A stretch of DNA of 64,000 nt, taken from a virus. Its lineage: Duplodnaviria > Heunggongvirae > Uroviricota > Caudoviricetes. Below are positions 33,919 to 40,925 of the stretch, piece by piece (the stretch's first letter is position 1; each line of letters begins with the position of its first letter). The notes beneath the pieces were generated by a model that did not search any database, was not told the DNA's origin, and saw nothing but the letters and a program-made list of their open reading frames with translations. A program made the position numbers and the translations under genes. The stretch is taken from IMG/VR virus record IMGVR_UViG_3300035498_001143; one strand, 5' to 3'.

Positions 33919-35129
33919 ATGAAAAAAATTAAATTAACTGCAAATATTCTTTTTAGTGGTATTGGCTGTCAAGAATATGGATGGAGAAAGAGTAATTTAT
34001 TTGATATAGAAGTATTAAATACTTCTGATATATACAAAGAAGCTGTATTATCTTATGCTGCTATACATTGTGATATGACTAATGAAATGGTAGATAGTTA
34101 TGATTATCCAACAAAAGAAGAAATGATTGAACATTTAACTAAAATAAATTTAGGATATGATGCAGATAAAAATAAACCATTTAATTGGAATAAGGTAAAA
34201 GATAATGATTTAAAGAAATATTACCTTGCTTGTAAATTAACAAATAATTTAGGTGATATTTCAAAAATTGAAGATTTACCTTATGCTGATTTTTGGACTA
34301 TTTCTTTTCCTTGTCAATCAATTTCAATATGTGGAAAATTAAAAGGTTTTACAGAGGGTTCTAATACAAGAAGTAGTTTATTATGGGAAAATATAAGATT
34401 ATTAAAAATTGCTAAAGAAAAGAATAAAACACCTAAGTATCTTATGTTCGAAAACGTAAAAAATTTACTTAGTAAAAGGTTTGAAAATGATTTTAAAGAT
34501 TTAGTTGATATATTAGACGATTTAGGTTTTAATATTTATTATAACGTATTAAATTCTAAATGTTGTGGAGTACCACAAAATAGAGAAAGAGTTTTTGTTA
34601 TTTGTATTAGAAAAGATACTGATACTAATTTATTTACTTTTCCAAAACCATTTGATAATGGAATGAGATTAAAAGATATTTTGGAAGATGAAGTTGATGA
34701 AAAATATTACATAAGTGAAGCAGCACAGAAAAAATTAAAATTTATAACTACTAATAGTAAAAACGATACTTTCCAATTAAAACAAATTGCTCAAATGTAT
34801 GGTACAGATAAAGAACCTAATCCTCAGGCAGGTAGAGTTTATAGTGAAGATTATATTTGCCCTACTTTAGATACTTGTAGCGGGGGAATAGAATGCCAAA
34901 AGTGTATAGAGAACCAAGAGTAAGAAAACTTACACCAAGAGAATGCTTTGCATTACAAGGTTTTACTTTTGAAGATTGTAATAAAGCAATAGATATAGGT
35001 GTTGCTGATTCTCATTTATACAAACAAGCAGGTAATGGTATTACGACTAATTGTTGTGCATTGTTAGCAGAACATTTATATAAAGCTCAATATAATAACT
35101 TTTACATTTGTAGTGATGAAAAATATTAA
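33919..35129 (+). CDS. C5-cytosine DNA methyltransferase interrupted by a frameshift at a G5 run (34882-34886)
   Basis: Motif I FSGIGC, IV FPCQ, VI ENV in the frame ending at 34923. Motif IX RKLTPRECFALQGF and X GNG are in the frame opening at 34881. One extra G would fuse them. Confidence 0.6.
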
Positions 35130-35141
35130 GAAGGTGAAAAT

Positions 35142-35858
35142 TTGGAATATAATGAATGTAAAATATTATGTACATTAGAAAAAGAAAAAACTCCTTTAAA
35201 AACAGTTGTACCTGTTGATGAATTTACTAAAAAATTAGAGTTAAATTTTGATTATGATTTTAATGGAGAAAATATTGTTTATCCTTATAAATATCCTGAG
35301 ATATTAGATAATATAGATTATAAAATATTATGTATTGTTGGTGCAAGTGGTAGTGGCAAGTCAACATTAATTAAAAAGTTCCCTTTCTATAAAGAGAATA
35401 ATAAACAATTTAATAATGAAAAAGCCATTGTTTCTAATTTTAATAATTTTGAAGAGGCAAGTGAGAAATTAATTGCAGTAGGTTTATCTTCTTTGCCTAT
35501 TTGGAGTAGACCAAGAAATGTTTTATCTATTGGTGAAGCTTTTAGAGCTGATTTAGCTTTAAATTTAGATAGTTATTCTGTATTTGATGAATTTACAAGT
35601 ACAGTAGATAGAAATGTAGCTAAATCTACTTGTTGTTCTATTTCTAAGTATATAAATAATAAAGAACTTACTCATATTGTTTTTTCAAGTTGTCATAAAG
35701 ATTTTATTTCTTATTTAAATCCTGATATTGTTATTGATTTAGATGATGAAAAAATATATGACTGTCGAGGTATTGACTTAAAAAAAGAATTACTCTCCAA
35801 GTATACGAATCAACAGACAAAGATATTTGGAGAGTATTTAGGAAACATCACTATTTAA
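35142..35858 (+). CDS. compact ABC-type ATPase domain protein
   Basis: Walker A GASGSGKST, signature-like LSIGEAFRADLA, Walker B VFDEFTSTVD, H-loop HIVFSSCH. Confidence 0.55.
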   Translation: MEYNECKILCTLEKEKTPLKTVVPVDEFTKKLELNFDYDFNGENIVYPYKYPEILDNIDYKILCIVGASGSGKSTLIKKFPFYKENNKQFNNEKAIVSNFNNFEEASEKLIAVGLSSLPIWSRPRNVLSIGEAFRADLALNLDSYSVFDEFTSTVDRNVAKSTCCSISKYINNKELTHIVFSSCHKDFISYLNPDIVIDLDDEKIYDCRGIDLKKELLSKYTNQQTKIFGEYLGNITI

Positions 35859-36487
35859 GTGCTGATTTTAATAAAGCAGCAAGATTATTCTTGGTATATT
35901 GGGATAATGTTTTAGTTGCATTATGTTCTATGTTACCTAATCCAAGTGGTACAGTAAAACACGGTTTTAGATGCCATAGATTGGTTGTCTTACCTGATTA
36001 TCAAGGTTTAGGTTTTGGTACTAAAATAACAGAATATATTGCTGATATTTATTTAAAAGAGGGTAAAAGGTTTTATTTTAGAACAACTCATAAGAAATTA
36101 CTTAATCATATGGATAGTAGCGATTTATGGGTTGGTACAAGTCATAATAATAAACCACAAACTACTGATATTCAAGGTAGAGAATTAAAAACTAAGAAAA
36201 GAATTTGTGGTAGTTATGAATATGTAGGTAATGATTATATTTCTAAACCACACAAAGAAATTGTTATTGACGAAATAAATGATTTAAATAAATTAAAAAA
36301 TTATTTAATAAGTTTACAAAAACAATATTATGTAATTATTATTCACGGTAAGTCTGAATGTGATGATGAAATCGATATACTTTGTCAAAAATTAGCTATA
36401 AGAACAAAAACTTTATATATAAAGAAAAAAGATACATACACTAAGAAAAAAATTCCTAAGAATGTAGAAATTTATAAGGAGAATTGA
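35789..36487 (+). CDS. GNAT-like acetyltransferase domain in the -1 frame relative to the ABC ATPase; probably its C-terminal extension via frameshift
   Basis: GNAT motif A RLVVLPDYQGLGFGTKI. The -1 frame is open from just after the A7 run at 35780-35786, with no independent RBS. Confidence 0.4.
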   Translation: MTLQVYESTDKDIWRVFRKHHYLSADFNKAARLFLVYWDNVLVALCSMLPNPSGTVKHGFRCHRLVVLPDYQGLGFGTKITEYIADIYLKEGKRFYFRTTHKKLLNHMDSSDLWVGTSHNNKPQTTDIQGRELKTKKRICGSYEYVGNDYISKPHKEIVIDEINDLNKLKNYLISLQKQYYVIIIHGKSECDDEIDILCQKLAIRTKTLYIKKKDTYTKKKIPKNVEIYKEN

Positions 36488-37598: not shown

Positions 37599-38156
37599 TT
37601 GAAAGATTTTACATTTGATTATTGGAGAGATAGTCTTGATAGTAATAAATTGTTTCTTGATGAGGGATATTGCATTTCAAATAATTGGGAAGATTATACT
37701 TATATTCCTTATTCTTTGAGAGAATTATCAGGTGAAGTTTTTAATGAAAAATTATATAATGCAAAAAAGAATAATTCTAAGAAAACTTCTAAGAATAAAA
37801 TAATAGATAACGACTTAAAGAAAAATCTTATTACAAAATTAGTATGTACTAATGAAAAAAGAGTAAGAAATATTATCGGTGGATTAACAATCGGACAAGA
37901 TGTTAATTTTGAATATACTAAAAAAGGAGTAAGTTGTTTTGTTGATAAATTAGAGTACCATAAATCAAAAAGAAATATTATTGTAGATAAAAAACATTTC
38001 ATAGGTCATATTCCTTTTTCAAAAACTTCTTTAATAAAAAATAACAAAAGTAATATTAGAAGTATAGAGATTTTTGATATAAAAGAAAAGTATAAAAATC
38101 AAAAAGCAATAATAATTAAAATAGAATTTTTAGAAGGAGTAAAAATAGATGGCTAA
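37599..38156 (+). CDS. hypothetical basic protein
   Basis: TTG after RBS aaaggagg. Confidence 0.4.
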   Translation: MKDFTFDYWRDSLDSNKLFLDEGYCISNNWEDYTYIPYSLRELSGEVFNEKLYNAKKNNSKKTSKNKIIDNDLKKNLITKLVCTNEKRVRNIIGGLTIGQDVNFEYTKKGVSCFVDKLEYHKSKRNIIVDKKHFIGHIPFSKTSLIKNNKSNIRSIEIFDIKEKYKNQKAIIIKIEFLEGVKIDG

Positions 38157-38504
38157 GAAGAAAGAAAAAAAAGTCGATATTGATAAGATGTTAGCCAATG
38201 AGGTAGTTTATGACGTACCTATAGCAAAAACAATAAGAAACTCAACATTGAATTATGCTATGTCAGTTATTACAGATAGAGCCTTACCTGATGTAAGAGA
38301 TGGTTGTAAACCAATACAAAGAAAAGTCTTGTATGCAACTTATGTAAAAAAAATATTTCCTAATTCAAAGTTTACAAAAAATGCTGAAATCGTAGGTGAA
38401 GTAATAGGTAAATACAGTCCTCACGGTGATACGAGTACTTATGGAGCTTTAGTAAATTTGGCTCAACCTTGGAACACAAAATATCCATTAATTGATTTTC
38501 ACGG
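38149..38504 (+). CDS. gyrA: DNA gyrase/topo II subunit A, exon 1 (through the HPHGD-region up to LIDFHG)
   Basis: ...GCKPIQRKVLYA...KYSPHGDTSTYGALVNLAQPW..., the GyrA N-terminal motifs. The frame stops 3 codons after the junction. Confidence 0.8.
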
Positions 38505-38890
38505 TAGACAATGATTTTTAATAAAAGATATAATTATATCTTGAAAAATTTGACTTAGTTAAAAATTATGCCGTTCTAAGTGAAACTGTCAGGTAGCTTA
38601 GAACTATGAGTGCGAAATGAAGCTGGGAGGGTTTAGTCATCCTAATCAGAAATTTTGAAGGCTATATTTAAAAGTATAGTCAAAGGCAACGCATAGAGAA
38701 TGAACCTTAAATGCGAGTTTAAGAATATAATTTCTCCAAGAGGTCGCACTAACGGACAGTACAATAACAGAGCTTATTCGTGTTAAAAAGTTATGCTATA
38801 CTGAATATGAATTGACATATTGATGAAAATGAGAGAAATCTCCAGAGATATAGATAAAAAACTATATGATAAAAACAATTAGAACTCAGG
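38505..38890 (+). ncRNA. intervening sequence in gyrA, probably a self-splicing intron (boundary +/- 1 nt)
   Basis: 386 nt with stops in all frames. Contains group-I-like pieces (AATCAGAAA, TATAGTC, GGCTATA) but in a non-canonical order. It ends in G, and excision restores ...LIDFHG|NFDGDQYAAYRYTEGRL in frame. Confidence 0.45.
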
Positions 38891-40925
38891 AAATTTTGAT
38901 GGAGACCAATATGCTGCTTATAGATATACAGAAGGCAGATTACATAAAAATGCAATGGAATTATTAAGTGGTCTTGAAGAAAAATGTGTTCCATTTCACC
39001 CCAATTTTAGTGAAACAACAGAAGAACCAGAAGTATTACCTGGTTTATTGCCTAATTTGCTTGTAAACGGCTCATACGGCATTGCAGTTGGCTATACAAC
39101 CAATTTCCCCTCACACAACCTTTCAGAGGTTATAGACGGTATTATAAAGGTTATACAGAACCCTGATGCTACATTAAAAGATATAATGAAATATATAAAA
39201 GCACCTGATTTTCCTTTAGGTAGTCTTTTGGTAGATGATGGTAATATTGAAAAATTATATACAGAAGGTAAAGCAAGTTTAACATTCTTATCTAAGTATA
39301 CTATTGAGGAAAATTCTGAAAATAAGAATCCTCAAATAATTTTTCACGAAATACCACCTACTGTTAATAAACCTAAACTTGTTGAAAAAATATACGAAGT
39401 CTGTATAGATAAAAAACAAGTACCAAGGGTTGTTGATATAAGGGATGAATCAAATGGTGAAGCAGGTATTAGAATTGTAGTTGAATTACATAAAACAGCA
39501 ATAGTAGATATTGTTTTATCTGAATTGTTTAAAAGAACAGATTTAAAGAAATCTAATTCATATATTTTAAGATGTATTGATGATAAAATTCCAAAGGTTT
39601 TATCTTTAAAAGAAATAATTGAAAAGTACATTGAATTTCATAAGGAAGTATATATTAGTAAATATACTAATATGTTAGCCAAAGTAAATAAAAAACTTCA
39701 TATTCAAGAGGGCTATAAAAAGATTTTAACTAATATTGATAAAGCAATTGATATTATTAGAAAATCTGATGATGATAAGGTTGCTAAAGCTAAATTAAAA
39801 GACGAATTTGATTTAACAGATGAGCAGGCAGAAGTAATTCTTGATATGAAATTAAGAAATATTACTAAGTTAGCTTCTAAAGATATTGATACGACTATTC
39901 AAGAGTATAAAGATAAAATTGCTACTTATACAGATATTATTTCAAATGATGATTCTTTAAATAATGTTTTAATAAACGATTTGAAAGATTTGAAAAAACG
40001 TCTTGGCGATAGTAGAAAAACTGAAATAGTCCATGATGTTGCTACTCAAATAGTTCAGAGTGTTGAAAAAGATGTAATGTTAGTCTTAACTAATAAGAAT
40101 AATATCAAACATTATGAAGTAGATACTTATGAAGAAATGATAGCGAAAGGCTATAAGGAGAAATCTGAAATATTCTTACAGTCTGTTAAAATAAATACTA
40201 ATGATAAAGTATTATTGATTTTAAATAATTGTAAATATATTTGTTTAGAATTTAATGATTTATTAGGTAATATAAGTTCATTAATAGATAAGCAGGCAAT
40301 TAAAACTATTATTCCTTTAACAGAAAACAATATGAAGAAAGTTATCTTTGTTATGACGAAAAAAGGGTTAATTAAAAAATGCTTTGTTGAAAAGATTAAA
40401 TATAAGAAGAAATTAGCTCCTCTTATGGAAATTGATGAAGAAGATAATGTAATAAAGGTTGATTTAATAGATAATAATGAAAATAATGTTATTACTGTTG
40501 CTTCACAAGATGGTTTAATACATAGATTCTTTGTTAATTCATTTAAAGAAACATCAGCAGGCGGTAAAGGATTAAGTAGTATGTCATTACAAGATAGTAA
40601 TATAGTTGATTTTATTATTTCTGATAAAAGTAATGATGAGAATAATCAATTAATTATTTATGCTATAAATGAAAATAATTATATGATTAAGAAAATACCT
40701 TTAAAGGAATTTTTAGTCAAGGGTAGAATAGCAAAAGGTGTTAAATCTATAAACTTTACTACAAAAAGTCCTGGCGAGATATATAAAATATTTATTACTG
40801 ATAAAGATTTTTCAATTATAAACAACAAGGGCATATTACAAGAAATAAAATTAGATAGTATAAAAGAAAGCACTAAAGCAACCAAGGGTGAAAATATAGA
40901 TTACGATGTTTTATATATAAAATAA
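38891..40925 (+). CDS. gyrA: gyrA exon 2 (active-site Tyr region, tower, C-terminal domain)
   Basis: NFDGD...RYTE..L...PNLLVNGSYGIAVGYTTNFPSHNL matches the GyrA/ParC breakage-reunion domain. The frame is open from 38892. Confidence 0.8.

Follow-up and report, generated by a model that had tools for sequence, protein, structure and literature searches.

A putative programmed -1 ribosomal frameshift linking an ABC-type ATPase to a GNAT domain in a phage gene family

We analyzed a 64,000-nucleotide stretch of DNA from a tailed phage (Caudoviricetes; IMG/VR record IMGVR_UViG_3300035498_001143), called the window throughout, in which an open reading frame (ORF) for an ABC-type ATPase is overlapped in the -1 frame by an ORF for a GNAT acetyltransferase. 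We consider it likely that programmed -1 ribosomal frameshifting at the linker between the two yields both a 27-kDa ATPase and a 52-kDa ATPase-GNAT fusion. In the mechanism that we propose, most ribosomes would translate positions 35142 to 35858 and release the 27-kDa ATPase. A fraction would pause at a 14-bp stem lying 4 nt past an A_AAA_AAA heptamer, both Lys-tRNAs would re-pair one base back, and the shifted ribosomes would read the -1 frame to 36487, producing the 52-kDa fusion. The site would then fix the ratio of ATPase-only to ATPase-GNAT protein. A ribosomal shift is favored because the heptamer lies in register, the spacer is short, the stem 3' of the spacer covaries, the -1 frame is closed upstream, and the frame changes seen in relatives are exclusively of -1 polarity; it is favored also because relatives that carry two separate genes have lost all of the frameshift signals.

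Frame architecture of the window locus

The features of the locus are listed in Table 1. The position of the ATPase start is backed by homologues beginning M-x-Y-x-x-C-K, and the ORF holds Walker A (GASGSGKST), signature-like (LSIGE), Walker B (VFDEF), and H-loop (CH) motifs. An earlier note, made from this DNA alone, had described a 238-amino-acid (aa) ABC-type ATPase with Walker A and B motifs, and that description is confirmed. The last 23 aa of the 238 form a tail without independent conservation. At the slip site the zero-frame codons read GAC TTA AAA AAA GAA, so that the A7 run, followed by G35787, stands in the register required for a two-tRNA -1 slip. The zero-frame stop, TAA 35856-35858, lies 71 nt past G35787. 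In most frameshift-type relatives this stop (window 35848-35858) falls in the conserved HHYL(S/N) codons (TAT TTA AGT -> TAA), and the in-frame relatives inspected carry an equivalent TAA in the +1 frame; the stop of the short product is therefore a by-product of a conserved peptide, not a designed terminator.

The GNAT frame cannot be entered from upstream, because the TGA that abuts the run closes it. It is open from 35777 to a TGA at 36485-36487; the 233 codons counted from A35786 agree with the roughly 230 aa of the note, which had placed the opening exactly after the heptamer when in fact it lies 3 nt before. By our own rough estimate from base composition, the chance of a 233-codon open frame at 25.8% GC is about 1e-9. 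The first ATG, GTG, or TTG in this frame is the TTG at 35891, which sits inside the conserved GNAT N terminus; W230, F233, and HHYL, all invariant in homologues, are encoded 5' of it. The earlier claim that the frame has no plausible start of its own is borne out: the -1 ORF lacks an initiation signal and continues a protein found as one chain in relatives. Residues 1 to 215 of the ATPase joined to the -1 frame give a 448-aa fusion of about 52 kDa, for which the predicted trans-frame Glu-C peptide is ...DCRGIDLKKRITLQVYE.

Upstream of the heptamer lies a GAGGT element resembling a Shine-Dalgarno (SD) sequence, and the codons equivalent to its R-G pair are G-rich in 18 of 19 members of the window's clade. 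This element could act as a stimulator, as in dnaX; we put its role no higher because the R-G amino acids by themselves partly force CGAGGT.

Table 1. Features of the ATPase-GNAT locus in the window
Feature	Positions	Strand	Remarks
SD-like GAAGGTGA	35130..35137	+	4 nt 5' of the TTG start of the ATPase ORF; read from sequence
Zero-frame ORF, ABC-type ATPase	35142..35858	+	238 aa, ~27 kDa; TTG start
GAGGT, G-rich, SD-like	35767..35771	+	In R-G codons (CGAGGT); 8 nt 5' of the heptamer
-1-frame stop TGA	35774..35776	+	Abuts the slippery run on its 5' side
Slippery heptamer A_AAA_AAA	35780..35786	+	Zero-frame codons TTA AAA AAA
Spacer GAAU, 4 nt	35787..35790	+	3 to 7 nt in 17/19 relatives
Stem-loop, 14 bp, 27-nt loop	35791..35845	+	35791-35804 paired with 35832-35845
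-1 segment, GNAT acetyltransferase and C-terminal alpha/beta domain	35786..36487	+	233 codons; A35786 read twice
GNAT motif A RLVVLPDYQGLGFGTKI	35978..36028	+	R280, L284, P285, Q288, and G289 invariant in alignment A1

One protein family, usually encoded as a single chain

When the 448-aa fusion was compared with 5.8 billion proteins, 1794 matches were obtained at E < 1e-10, and the best of them are single ORFs of about 400 aa with approximately 50% identity. The fusion aligns with these single-ORF homologues without any insertion or deletion at the junction. Pfam finds GNAT (PF00583) at fusion residues 240 to 313 with an E value of 2.5e-7, which upholds the GNAT motif A that the note had read in the -1 frame; P-loop matches were also found, although the ABC_tran match by itself falls under its cut-off. 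In PHROGs a single family, phrog_11143, is colinear over fusion residues 23 to 365 (E 2e-84). Across alignment A1 the ABC motifs are invariant, namely Walker A (G67-S74), LSxGE (L128, S129, G131, and E132), the DE pair (D149 and E150), and the H-loop (H185), while in the GNAT half W230, F233, HHYL, and RxVVLPxxQG are invariant.

Sequence searches of the PDB returned marginal ABC matches only (E 0.02 to 0.1), and a comparison of folds was therefore needed. The AlphaFold model of the joined protein has a mean predicted local distance difference test (pLDDT) of 84.7 and a predicted template modeling score (pTM) of 0.76, and across the junction, residues 201 to 230, the means of the 10-residue pLDDT blocks are 96, 89, and 87. 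Foldseek matched the model to the ABC nucleotide-binding domains of MacB, HrtA, and FtsE and to RimI-like GNATs, the latter at a probability of 1.0. On this evidence the two ORFs are one gene of a phage ABC-ATPase/GNAT family, the common form of which is a single-polypeptide fusion.

That the two domains form one protein is no novelty. Iyer et al. 2021 (PMC7824862, section 3.4.7) report the coupling of an ABC ATPase with a GNAT, for which they predict acylation of a DNA base, and they give Iyer et al. 2013 (NAR) as a source for the module; the acyl group is described as uncharacterized, and the example phage is Tenacibaculum phage pT24. That phage is among the matches of the present search, and together with the colinear phrog_11143 match this places the window gene in the same family. 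The earlier suggestion that an ABC ATPase plus GNAT pair is an undescribed module must accordingly be dropped. The window gene is set among four DNA methyltransferases, two of the N6_N4 type, one C5, and one D12, a context consistent with the predicted acyl transfer to a DNA base, and in streptococcal phages the family gene adjoins ParB or methylase genes.

What is new is only how the fusion is made. We found no description of a frameshift in the ABC ATPase-GNAT family in the literature: Iyer et al. 2021 (PMC7824862) covers the fused domain architecture and has nothing on a frameshift, and the opening part of the Atkins 2016 review and Antonov 2013 are silent on the subject.

The annotation of the family in public records is uneven. 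Nine loci of our collection (L001 to L004 and L247 to L251) are variously labeled ABC transporter, iron siderophore transporter, hypothetical protein, or GNAT family N-acetyltransferase, and ORF024 of Enterococcus phage 9184 is annotated as a DNA polymerase. In P335 (Orf25) and Oenococcus phage Vinitor-27, the second ORF has been given a start codon inside the conserved GNAT N terminus.

Frame changes among relatives

Relatives were taken from GenBank phages, IMG/VR, GTDB genomes, and JGI/ENA metagenomes, and the frames of the ATPase and GNAT matches were scored for each locus. Across 251 loci, 189 are in-frame, 52 have a -1 change, none has a +1 change, and 10 are partial, and all 52 frame changes occur at the ATPase-GNAT linker. 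The first set of 166 loci contributed 111 in-frame, 45 -1, and all 10 partial loci, with no +1 change; the second set of 80 comprised 78 in-frame and 2 -1 loci, with none +1 or partial; and the five phage records are all -1, with none in-frame, +1, or partial. A single locus with a +1 offset, L154, counted as partial, proved to be a two-gene form with an inserted ORF, and +1 frameshifting was rejected.

The window's clade is monophyletic in a neighbor-joining tree built on the ATPase domain. It comprises 30 distinct sequences, 28 of which are -1 and 2 of which (L086 and L117) are two-gene; none is in-frame. The two-gene members are nested and represent a derived form, and the sister clade is in-frame apart from the basal L151. 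The split recurs in completed phage and prophage genomes that were sequenced by separate projects, among them the S. pyogenes prophages phiNIH1.1 and 315.4, Javan prophages, Lactococcus P335, Oenococcus phages, Enterococcus phage 9184, and Thomasclavelia phages TR-TP1 and TR-TP2. In phages of Gram-negative hosts or actinobacteria, the gene is one ORF in every case.

The two-gene relatives (L086/L116, L117, L154, and L161) have stop-start overlaps, TAATG or TGATG, and an ATPase with its own tail. The regions concerned are 3089-3330 in L086, 738-960 in L117, 800-960 in L161, and 190-640 in L154, the last with a small extra ORF inserted between its two genes. One locus of the G5 type, L148 (1378-1500), has in-frame TAG codons within the ATPase (DLDD*NIY, where relatives have E or K), and it may come from a phage that recodes TAG, or the copy may be decaying.

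Slippery motifs at one linker codon

When the motifs were compared at one linker codon in the zero-frame register, three classes appeared in the window's clade. A_AAA_AAA, in codons [CT]TA AAA AAA G, occurs in five lineages (the window, L044, L109, L114, and L121); G_GGA_AAA, in codons TTG GGA AAA A, occurs in L119, L152, and L156; and G_GGG_GAR, in codons [CT]TG GGG GA[AG], occurs in at least 10 lineages. All 20 representatives have a -1-frame stop 0 to 15 nt 5' of the run, and in 11 of them, the window included, no canonical start codon falls between that stop and the run. In insertion sequence (IS) elements A_AAA_AAA and A_AAA_AAG are the commonest heptamers, together making up 72%, and Z_ZZN tetramers are a recognized frameshift class (PMC4066793).

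Other clades have motifs of their own. Enterococcus phage 9184 has GCA AAA AAG, that is, A_AAA_AAG, and the Streptococcus and Lactococcus phages have GTT TTT CAA TTC CCC CAC, which holds T_TTT plus C_CCC. Both tetramers are conserved in this P335-type clade, so that the exact slip site cannot be fixed, and a strong stem is absent from the region tested there. L163 and L164 have a T9 run at the linker.

A conserved stem-loop downstream of the slip site

The stem-loop of the window has a minimum free energy of -19 kcal/mol (z -5.6), and none of 200 shuffled sequences was as stable. When synonymous codons were resampled from the window's own usage, with the GNAT protein sequence held fixed, only 1 of 2000 recodings was as stable (mean -8.5, standard deviation 2.6). 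A stem of 11 to 14 bp beginning 3 to 7 nt past the motif is present in 17 of 19 clade representatives. For comparison across loci, we folded the 72 nt ending at the HHY codons, and most A7, G5, or G3A5 members of the clade fold at -16 to -23 kcal/mol, with z scores of -2.6 to -6.7. By contrast, the closest in-frame relatives for the most part reach only -1.7 to -6 kcal/mol, with z of about +1, despite a similar peptide and equally AT-rich DNA. The z scores of all 31 -1 loci and 92 in-frame loci differ (Mann-Whitney p = 6e-6), and the two-gene relatives L086 and L117 have neither run nor stem.

Since the stems share no single register, covariation was sought by folding each sequence and by two subgroup alignments. 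In a subgroup of eight sequences, 95.5% of the cells pair, versus 30 to 62% in slid registers, with two compensatory positions (UA/GC/CG and GC/AU/CG) and a covariation score reached by 2 of 500 shuffles. In a subgroup of seven, 81% of the cells pair, five positions are compensatory, and the covariation score is above all 500 shuffles. The site, the direction, and the stimulator are thus conserved in diverged relatives, and the stem covaries, though without a single consensus register. Rfam at the gathering score found nothing in the 64-kb window.

Weighing the alternatives

Several observations weigh against a programmed ribosomal shift. RNAalifold over all 19 clade sequences gave no consensus structure, a single register pairs only 73% of cells and has a competing register at -2, and the stems of the clade fall into three or more pairing registers. 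In L044 and L121 the hairpin is another one (GAGTTGTCC / GGACAACTC), set off in the fold by a spacer of 3 nt. A G5 run without a strong stem is found in L153 and in the Thomasclavelia-type members, the latter also with a TTG in the -1 frame; L151 likewise lacks a strong stem. An ATG, GTG, or TTG of the -1 frame, arising as a by-product, stands just 5' of the run in 9 of the 20 relatives. Moreover, G_GGG_GAR is a non-canonical heptamer, and for G_GG.G constructs in E. coli it has been suspected that they serve as an SD for initiation in the -1 frame (PMC4066793).

The A7 run of the window is, in addition, a homopolymer of the kind on which RNA polymerase can slip, and addition of an A to some mRNAs would give A8 and an in-frame fusion from an unshifted ribosome, the protein outcome being identical. 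AAAAAAA is under-represented in all frames of E. coli genes, possibly owing to such slippage (PMC4066793), and the T9 linker runs of L163 and L164 point the same way. For productive slippage, however, A7 is short. Efficient transcriptional slippage uses runs of 9 or more bases, and the hairpins that promote it lie 5' of the run. The element conserved here, a hairpin, follows the run after a spacer of 3 to 7 nt, which is the ribosomal arrangement, and clade members with G5A2-3 or G3A5 could realign only with mismatches and yet have the same architecture. Because of this conserved 3' stem and the G_GGA_AAA and G_GGG variants, ribosomal frameshifting is favored, and transcriptional slippage, which might contribute on A7, appears unlikely as the main route. 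The earlier note had offered both routes from A7 to a fusion made beside the short ATPase; the conserved -1 offset, the motifs, and the covarying stem speak for the first, and the second is the less favored.

That no fusion is made, with the GNAT ORF begun internally, for example at ATT 35789-35791, or by translational coupling, strikes us as very unlikely. The two-gene relatives demonstrate that separate polypeptides can work, 9 of 20 clade members have a -1-frame start codon just 5' of the run, and G-runs can mimic an SD (PMC4066793), so internal initiation is possible in some G5-type relatives. In the window it is implausible: the stretch from the -1-frame stop to the conserved GNAT residues holds no ATG, GTG, or TTG, no SD lies at a workable distance from the ATT (GAGGT is 17 nt upstream), and the 14-bp stem begins on the ATT and would occlude it. 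The true two-gene relatives, having lost both slippery run and stem, show what that solution looks like.

An artefact or decay, in which the genome is truly A8 and one base of the homopolymer was undercalled or the gene is a recent frameshift pseudogene, would be a very improbable account. One added A does restore the frame exactly, a -1 offset, there at a G5 run (34882-34886), likewise interrupts the neighboring C5 methyltransferase gene, a pattern expected of homopolymer undercalling, and direct comparison of A7 with A8 in a close phage relative was impossible, as neither a megablast against phages nor a single-protein IMG/VR scan found a near-identical one. Nevertheless, a run of exactly A7 stands in the same register in five independent lineages, and 30 of 30 distinct clade members are out of frame by -1 at the linker codon, a constancy of site and sign that argues against error or decay because these would scatter in both. 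The 12 A7 and 4 A8 runs found deep in intact long ORFs of the window speak against a general homopolymer error, the covarying stem follows the site, and over 233 codons the GNAT frame stays both open and conserved.

Homopolymer tracts are a classic form of contingency locus in genes for DNA modification, and the run might be read as a DNA-level mutational switch for the GNAT fusion in the phage population; phasevarions are cited in PMC3711429. The tracts here are short (5 to 7 nt) and constant in length (A7 or G5) rather than polymorphic, an in-frame ON allele is absent both from the 30 distinct clade sequences and from 8 near-identical Thomasclavelia-type gut contigs, and such a switch gives no reason for a conserved 3' stem. 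We regard phase variation as extremely improbable.

Comparison with known recoding systems

With programmed ribosomal frameshifting as the preferred reading, the closest parallel is the OrfA-OrfAB arrangement of IS3, IS911, and IS1, which combines A_AAA_AAA or A_AAA_AAG with a downstream stem-loop or pseudoknot (PMC4066793). In these transposases, as predicted for the window, the unshifted product is a short N-terminal protein, the shift adds a catalytic domain from the -1 frame, and the efficiency of the shift sets the ratio (PMC4066793). The window gene differs in being a phage ABC-ATPase/GNAT enzyme, many relatives of which are plain in-frame fusion ORFs. Judged from its sequence, the window site is best classed as a -1 frameshift cassette of the IS kind, located in a phage gene for DNA modification.

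E. coli dnaX, which makes tau and gamma, likewise combines an A-rich Lys-Lys heptamer, an upstream SD-like element, and a 3' stem-loop (described in part in PMC5009743), and two products come from one ATPase gene. The dnaX shift truncates, whereas that of the window would extend, and the part of the upstream SD in the window is only conjectured. At the level of the protein, the tRNA(Met) cytidine acetyltransferase TmcA (PDB 2zpa) similarly joins a P-loop ATPase to a GNAT that acetylates a nucleobase. Its Foldseek match extends over 445 columns and is weak overall (root mean square deviation 14.9, TM score 0.24); the ATPase of TmcA is helicase-like rather than ABC-type, its substrate is tRNA, and the likeness is one of analogy, not of membership.

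In the G/GT tail assembly chaperone genes of tailed phages, a -1 shift has been kept in divergent phages although the slippery sequence has changed, and it gives a short and a long product. G/GT forms a GeneTack cluster in PMC3711429. The window gene resembles it in its conserved -1 offset, its changing slippery sequence, and its predicted short and long products. G/GT is structural and near-universal in long-tailed phages, whereas the window gene encodes an enzyme, the putative shift is limited to certain clades, and elsewhere the gene is in-frame or divided into two genes.

The linker of in-frame relatives

Of 58 distinct linkers in the in-frame relatives, 40 encode their R-G pair as AGG GGG, compared with 3 of 59 R-G pairs elsewhere in the same genes. 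This creates a G5 run that is SD-like, AAGGGGGU, as for example in L089 (3083-3209) and L014 (1032-1158). A -1 slip there would stop after a median of 7 codons, no structure was found 3' of the run in these relatives (mean z +0.1), and we do not claim frameshifting for these genes. AGG GGG could be a second recoding site, an SD-like pause element, or the precursor from which the upstream stimulator arose. A more speculative and rather doubtful idea is that recoding at the linker is a property of the whole family, with in-frame genes making a minor truncated ATPase, by the logic of dnaX, and the window's clade making a minor fusion, by the logic of IS elements. If so, both would aim at a defined mixture of ATPase-only and ATPase-GNAT protein, for instance an asymmetric ABC dimer with one acetyltransferase on DNA, in which the two products would be used as a heteromer.

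Other interrupted genes in the window

Two further genes of the window are interrupted. The adjacent C5 cytosine methyltransferase (33919-35129) is split by a -1 offset at AGC GGG GGA ATA, a G_GGA tetramer, and the G5 at the break is one of five such runs in the 25.8% GC window. Reading ...CSGG|NRMPKVYREPRVRKLTPRE restores the gene, with a colinear PF00145 match over profile positions 26 to 322 of 324, and its phage homologues are single ORFs. No close relatives were found, and the split may be a second frameshift, a mutation, or an error.

The GyrA/ParC-like topoisomerase subunit (38149-40925) is in two pieces, matching Pfam positions 1 to 75 and 102 to 432, with a gap at about 38507-38905. 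The missing segment, ...GNFDGDQYAAYRYTEGRL..., is encoded just 5' of 38955 in the frame of the second piece, which implies an insert of about 395 nt. The insert is probably an intron, although its splice boundaries do not fit the textbook group I U/G pattern, and Rfam at E <= 1 found nothing in the gap.

Implications

Apart from the tail chaperone and mobile elements, few phage genes are known to have a conserved programmed frameshift. The same enzyme is encoded in three ways, by an in-frame fusion gene, a -1 frameshifted pair, or two coupled genes, which makes the selective value of a fixed ratio of short to long product testable. Present annotations obscure an enzyme, predicted to modify DNA, that is widespread in phages and prophages of Streptococcus, Lactococcus, Oenococcus, Enterococcus, and Thomasclavelia, and work on the DNA modification will need the predicted frameshifted product rather than the annotated ORFs.

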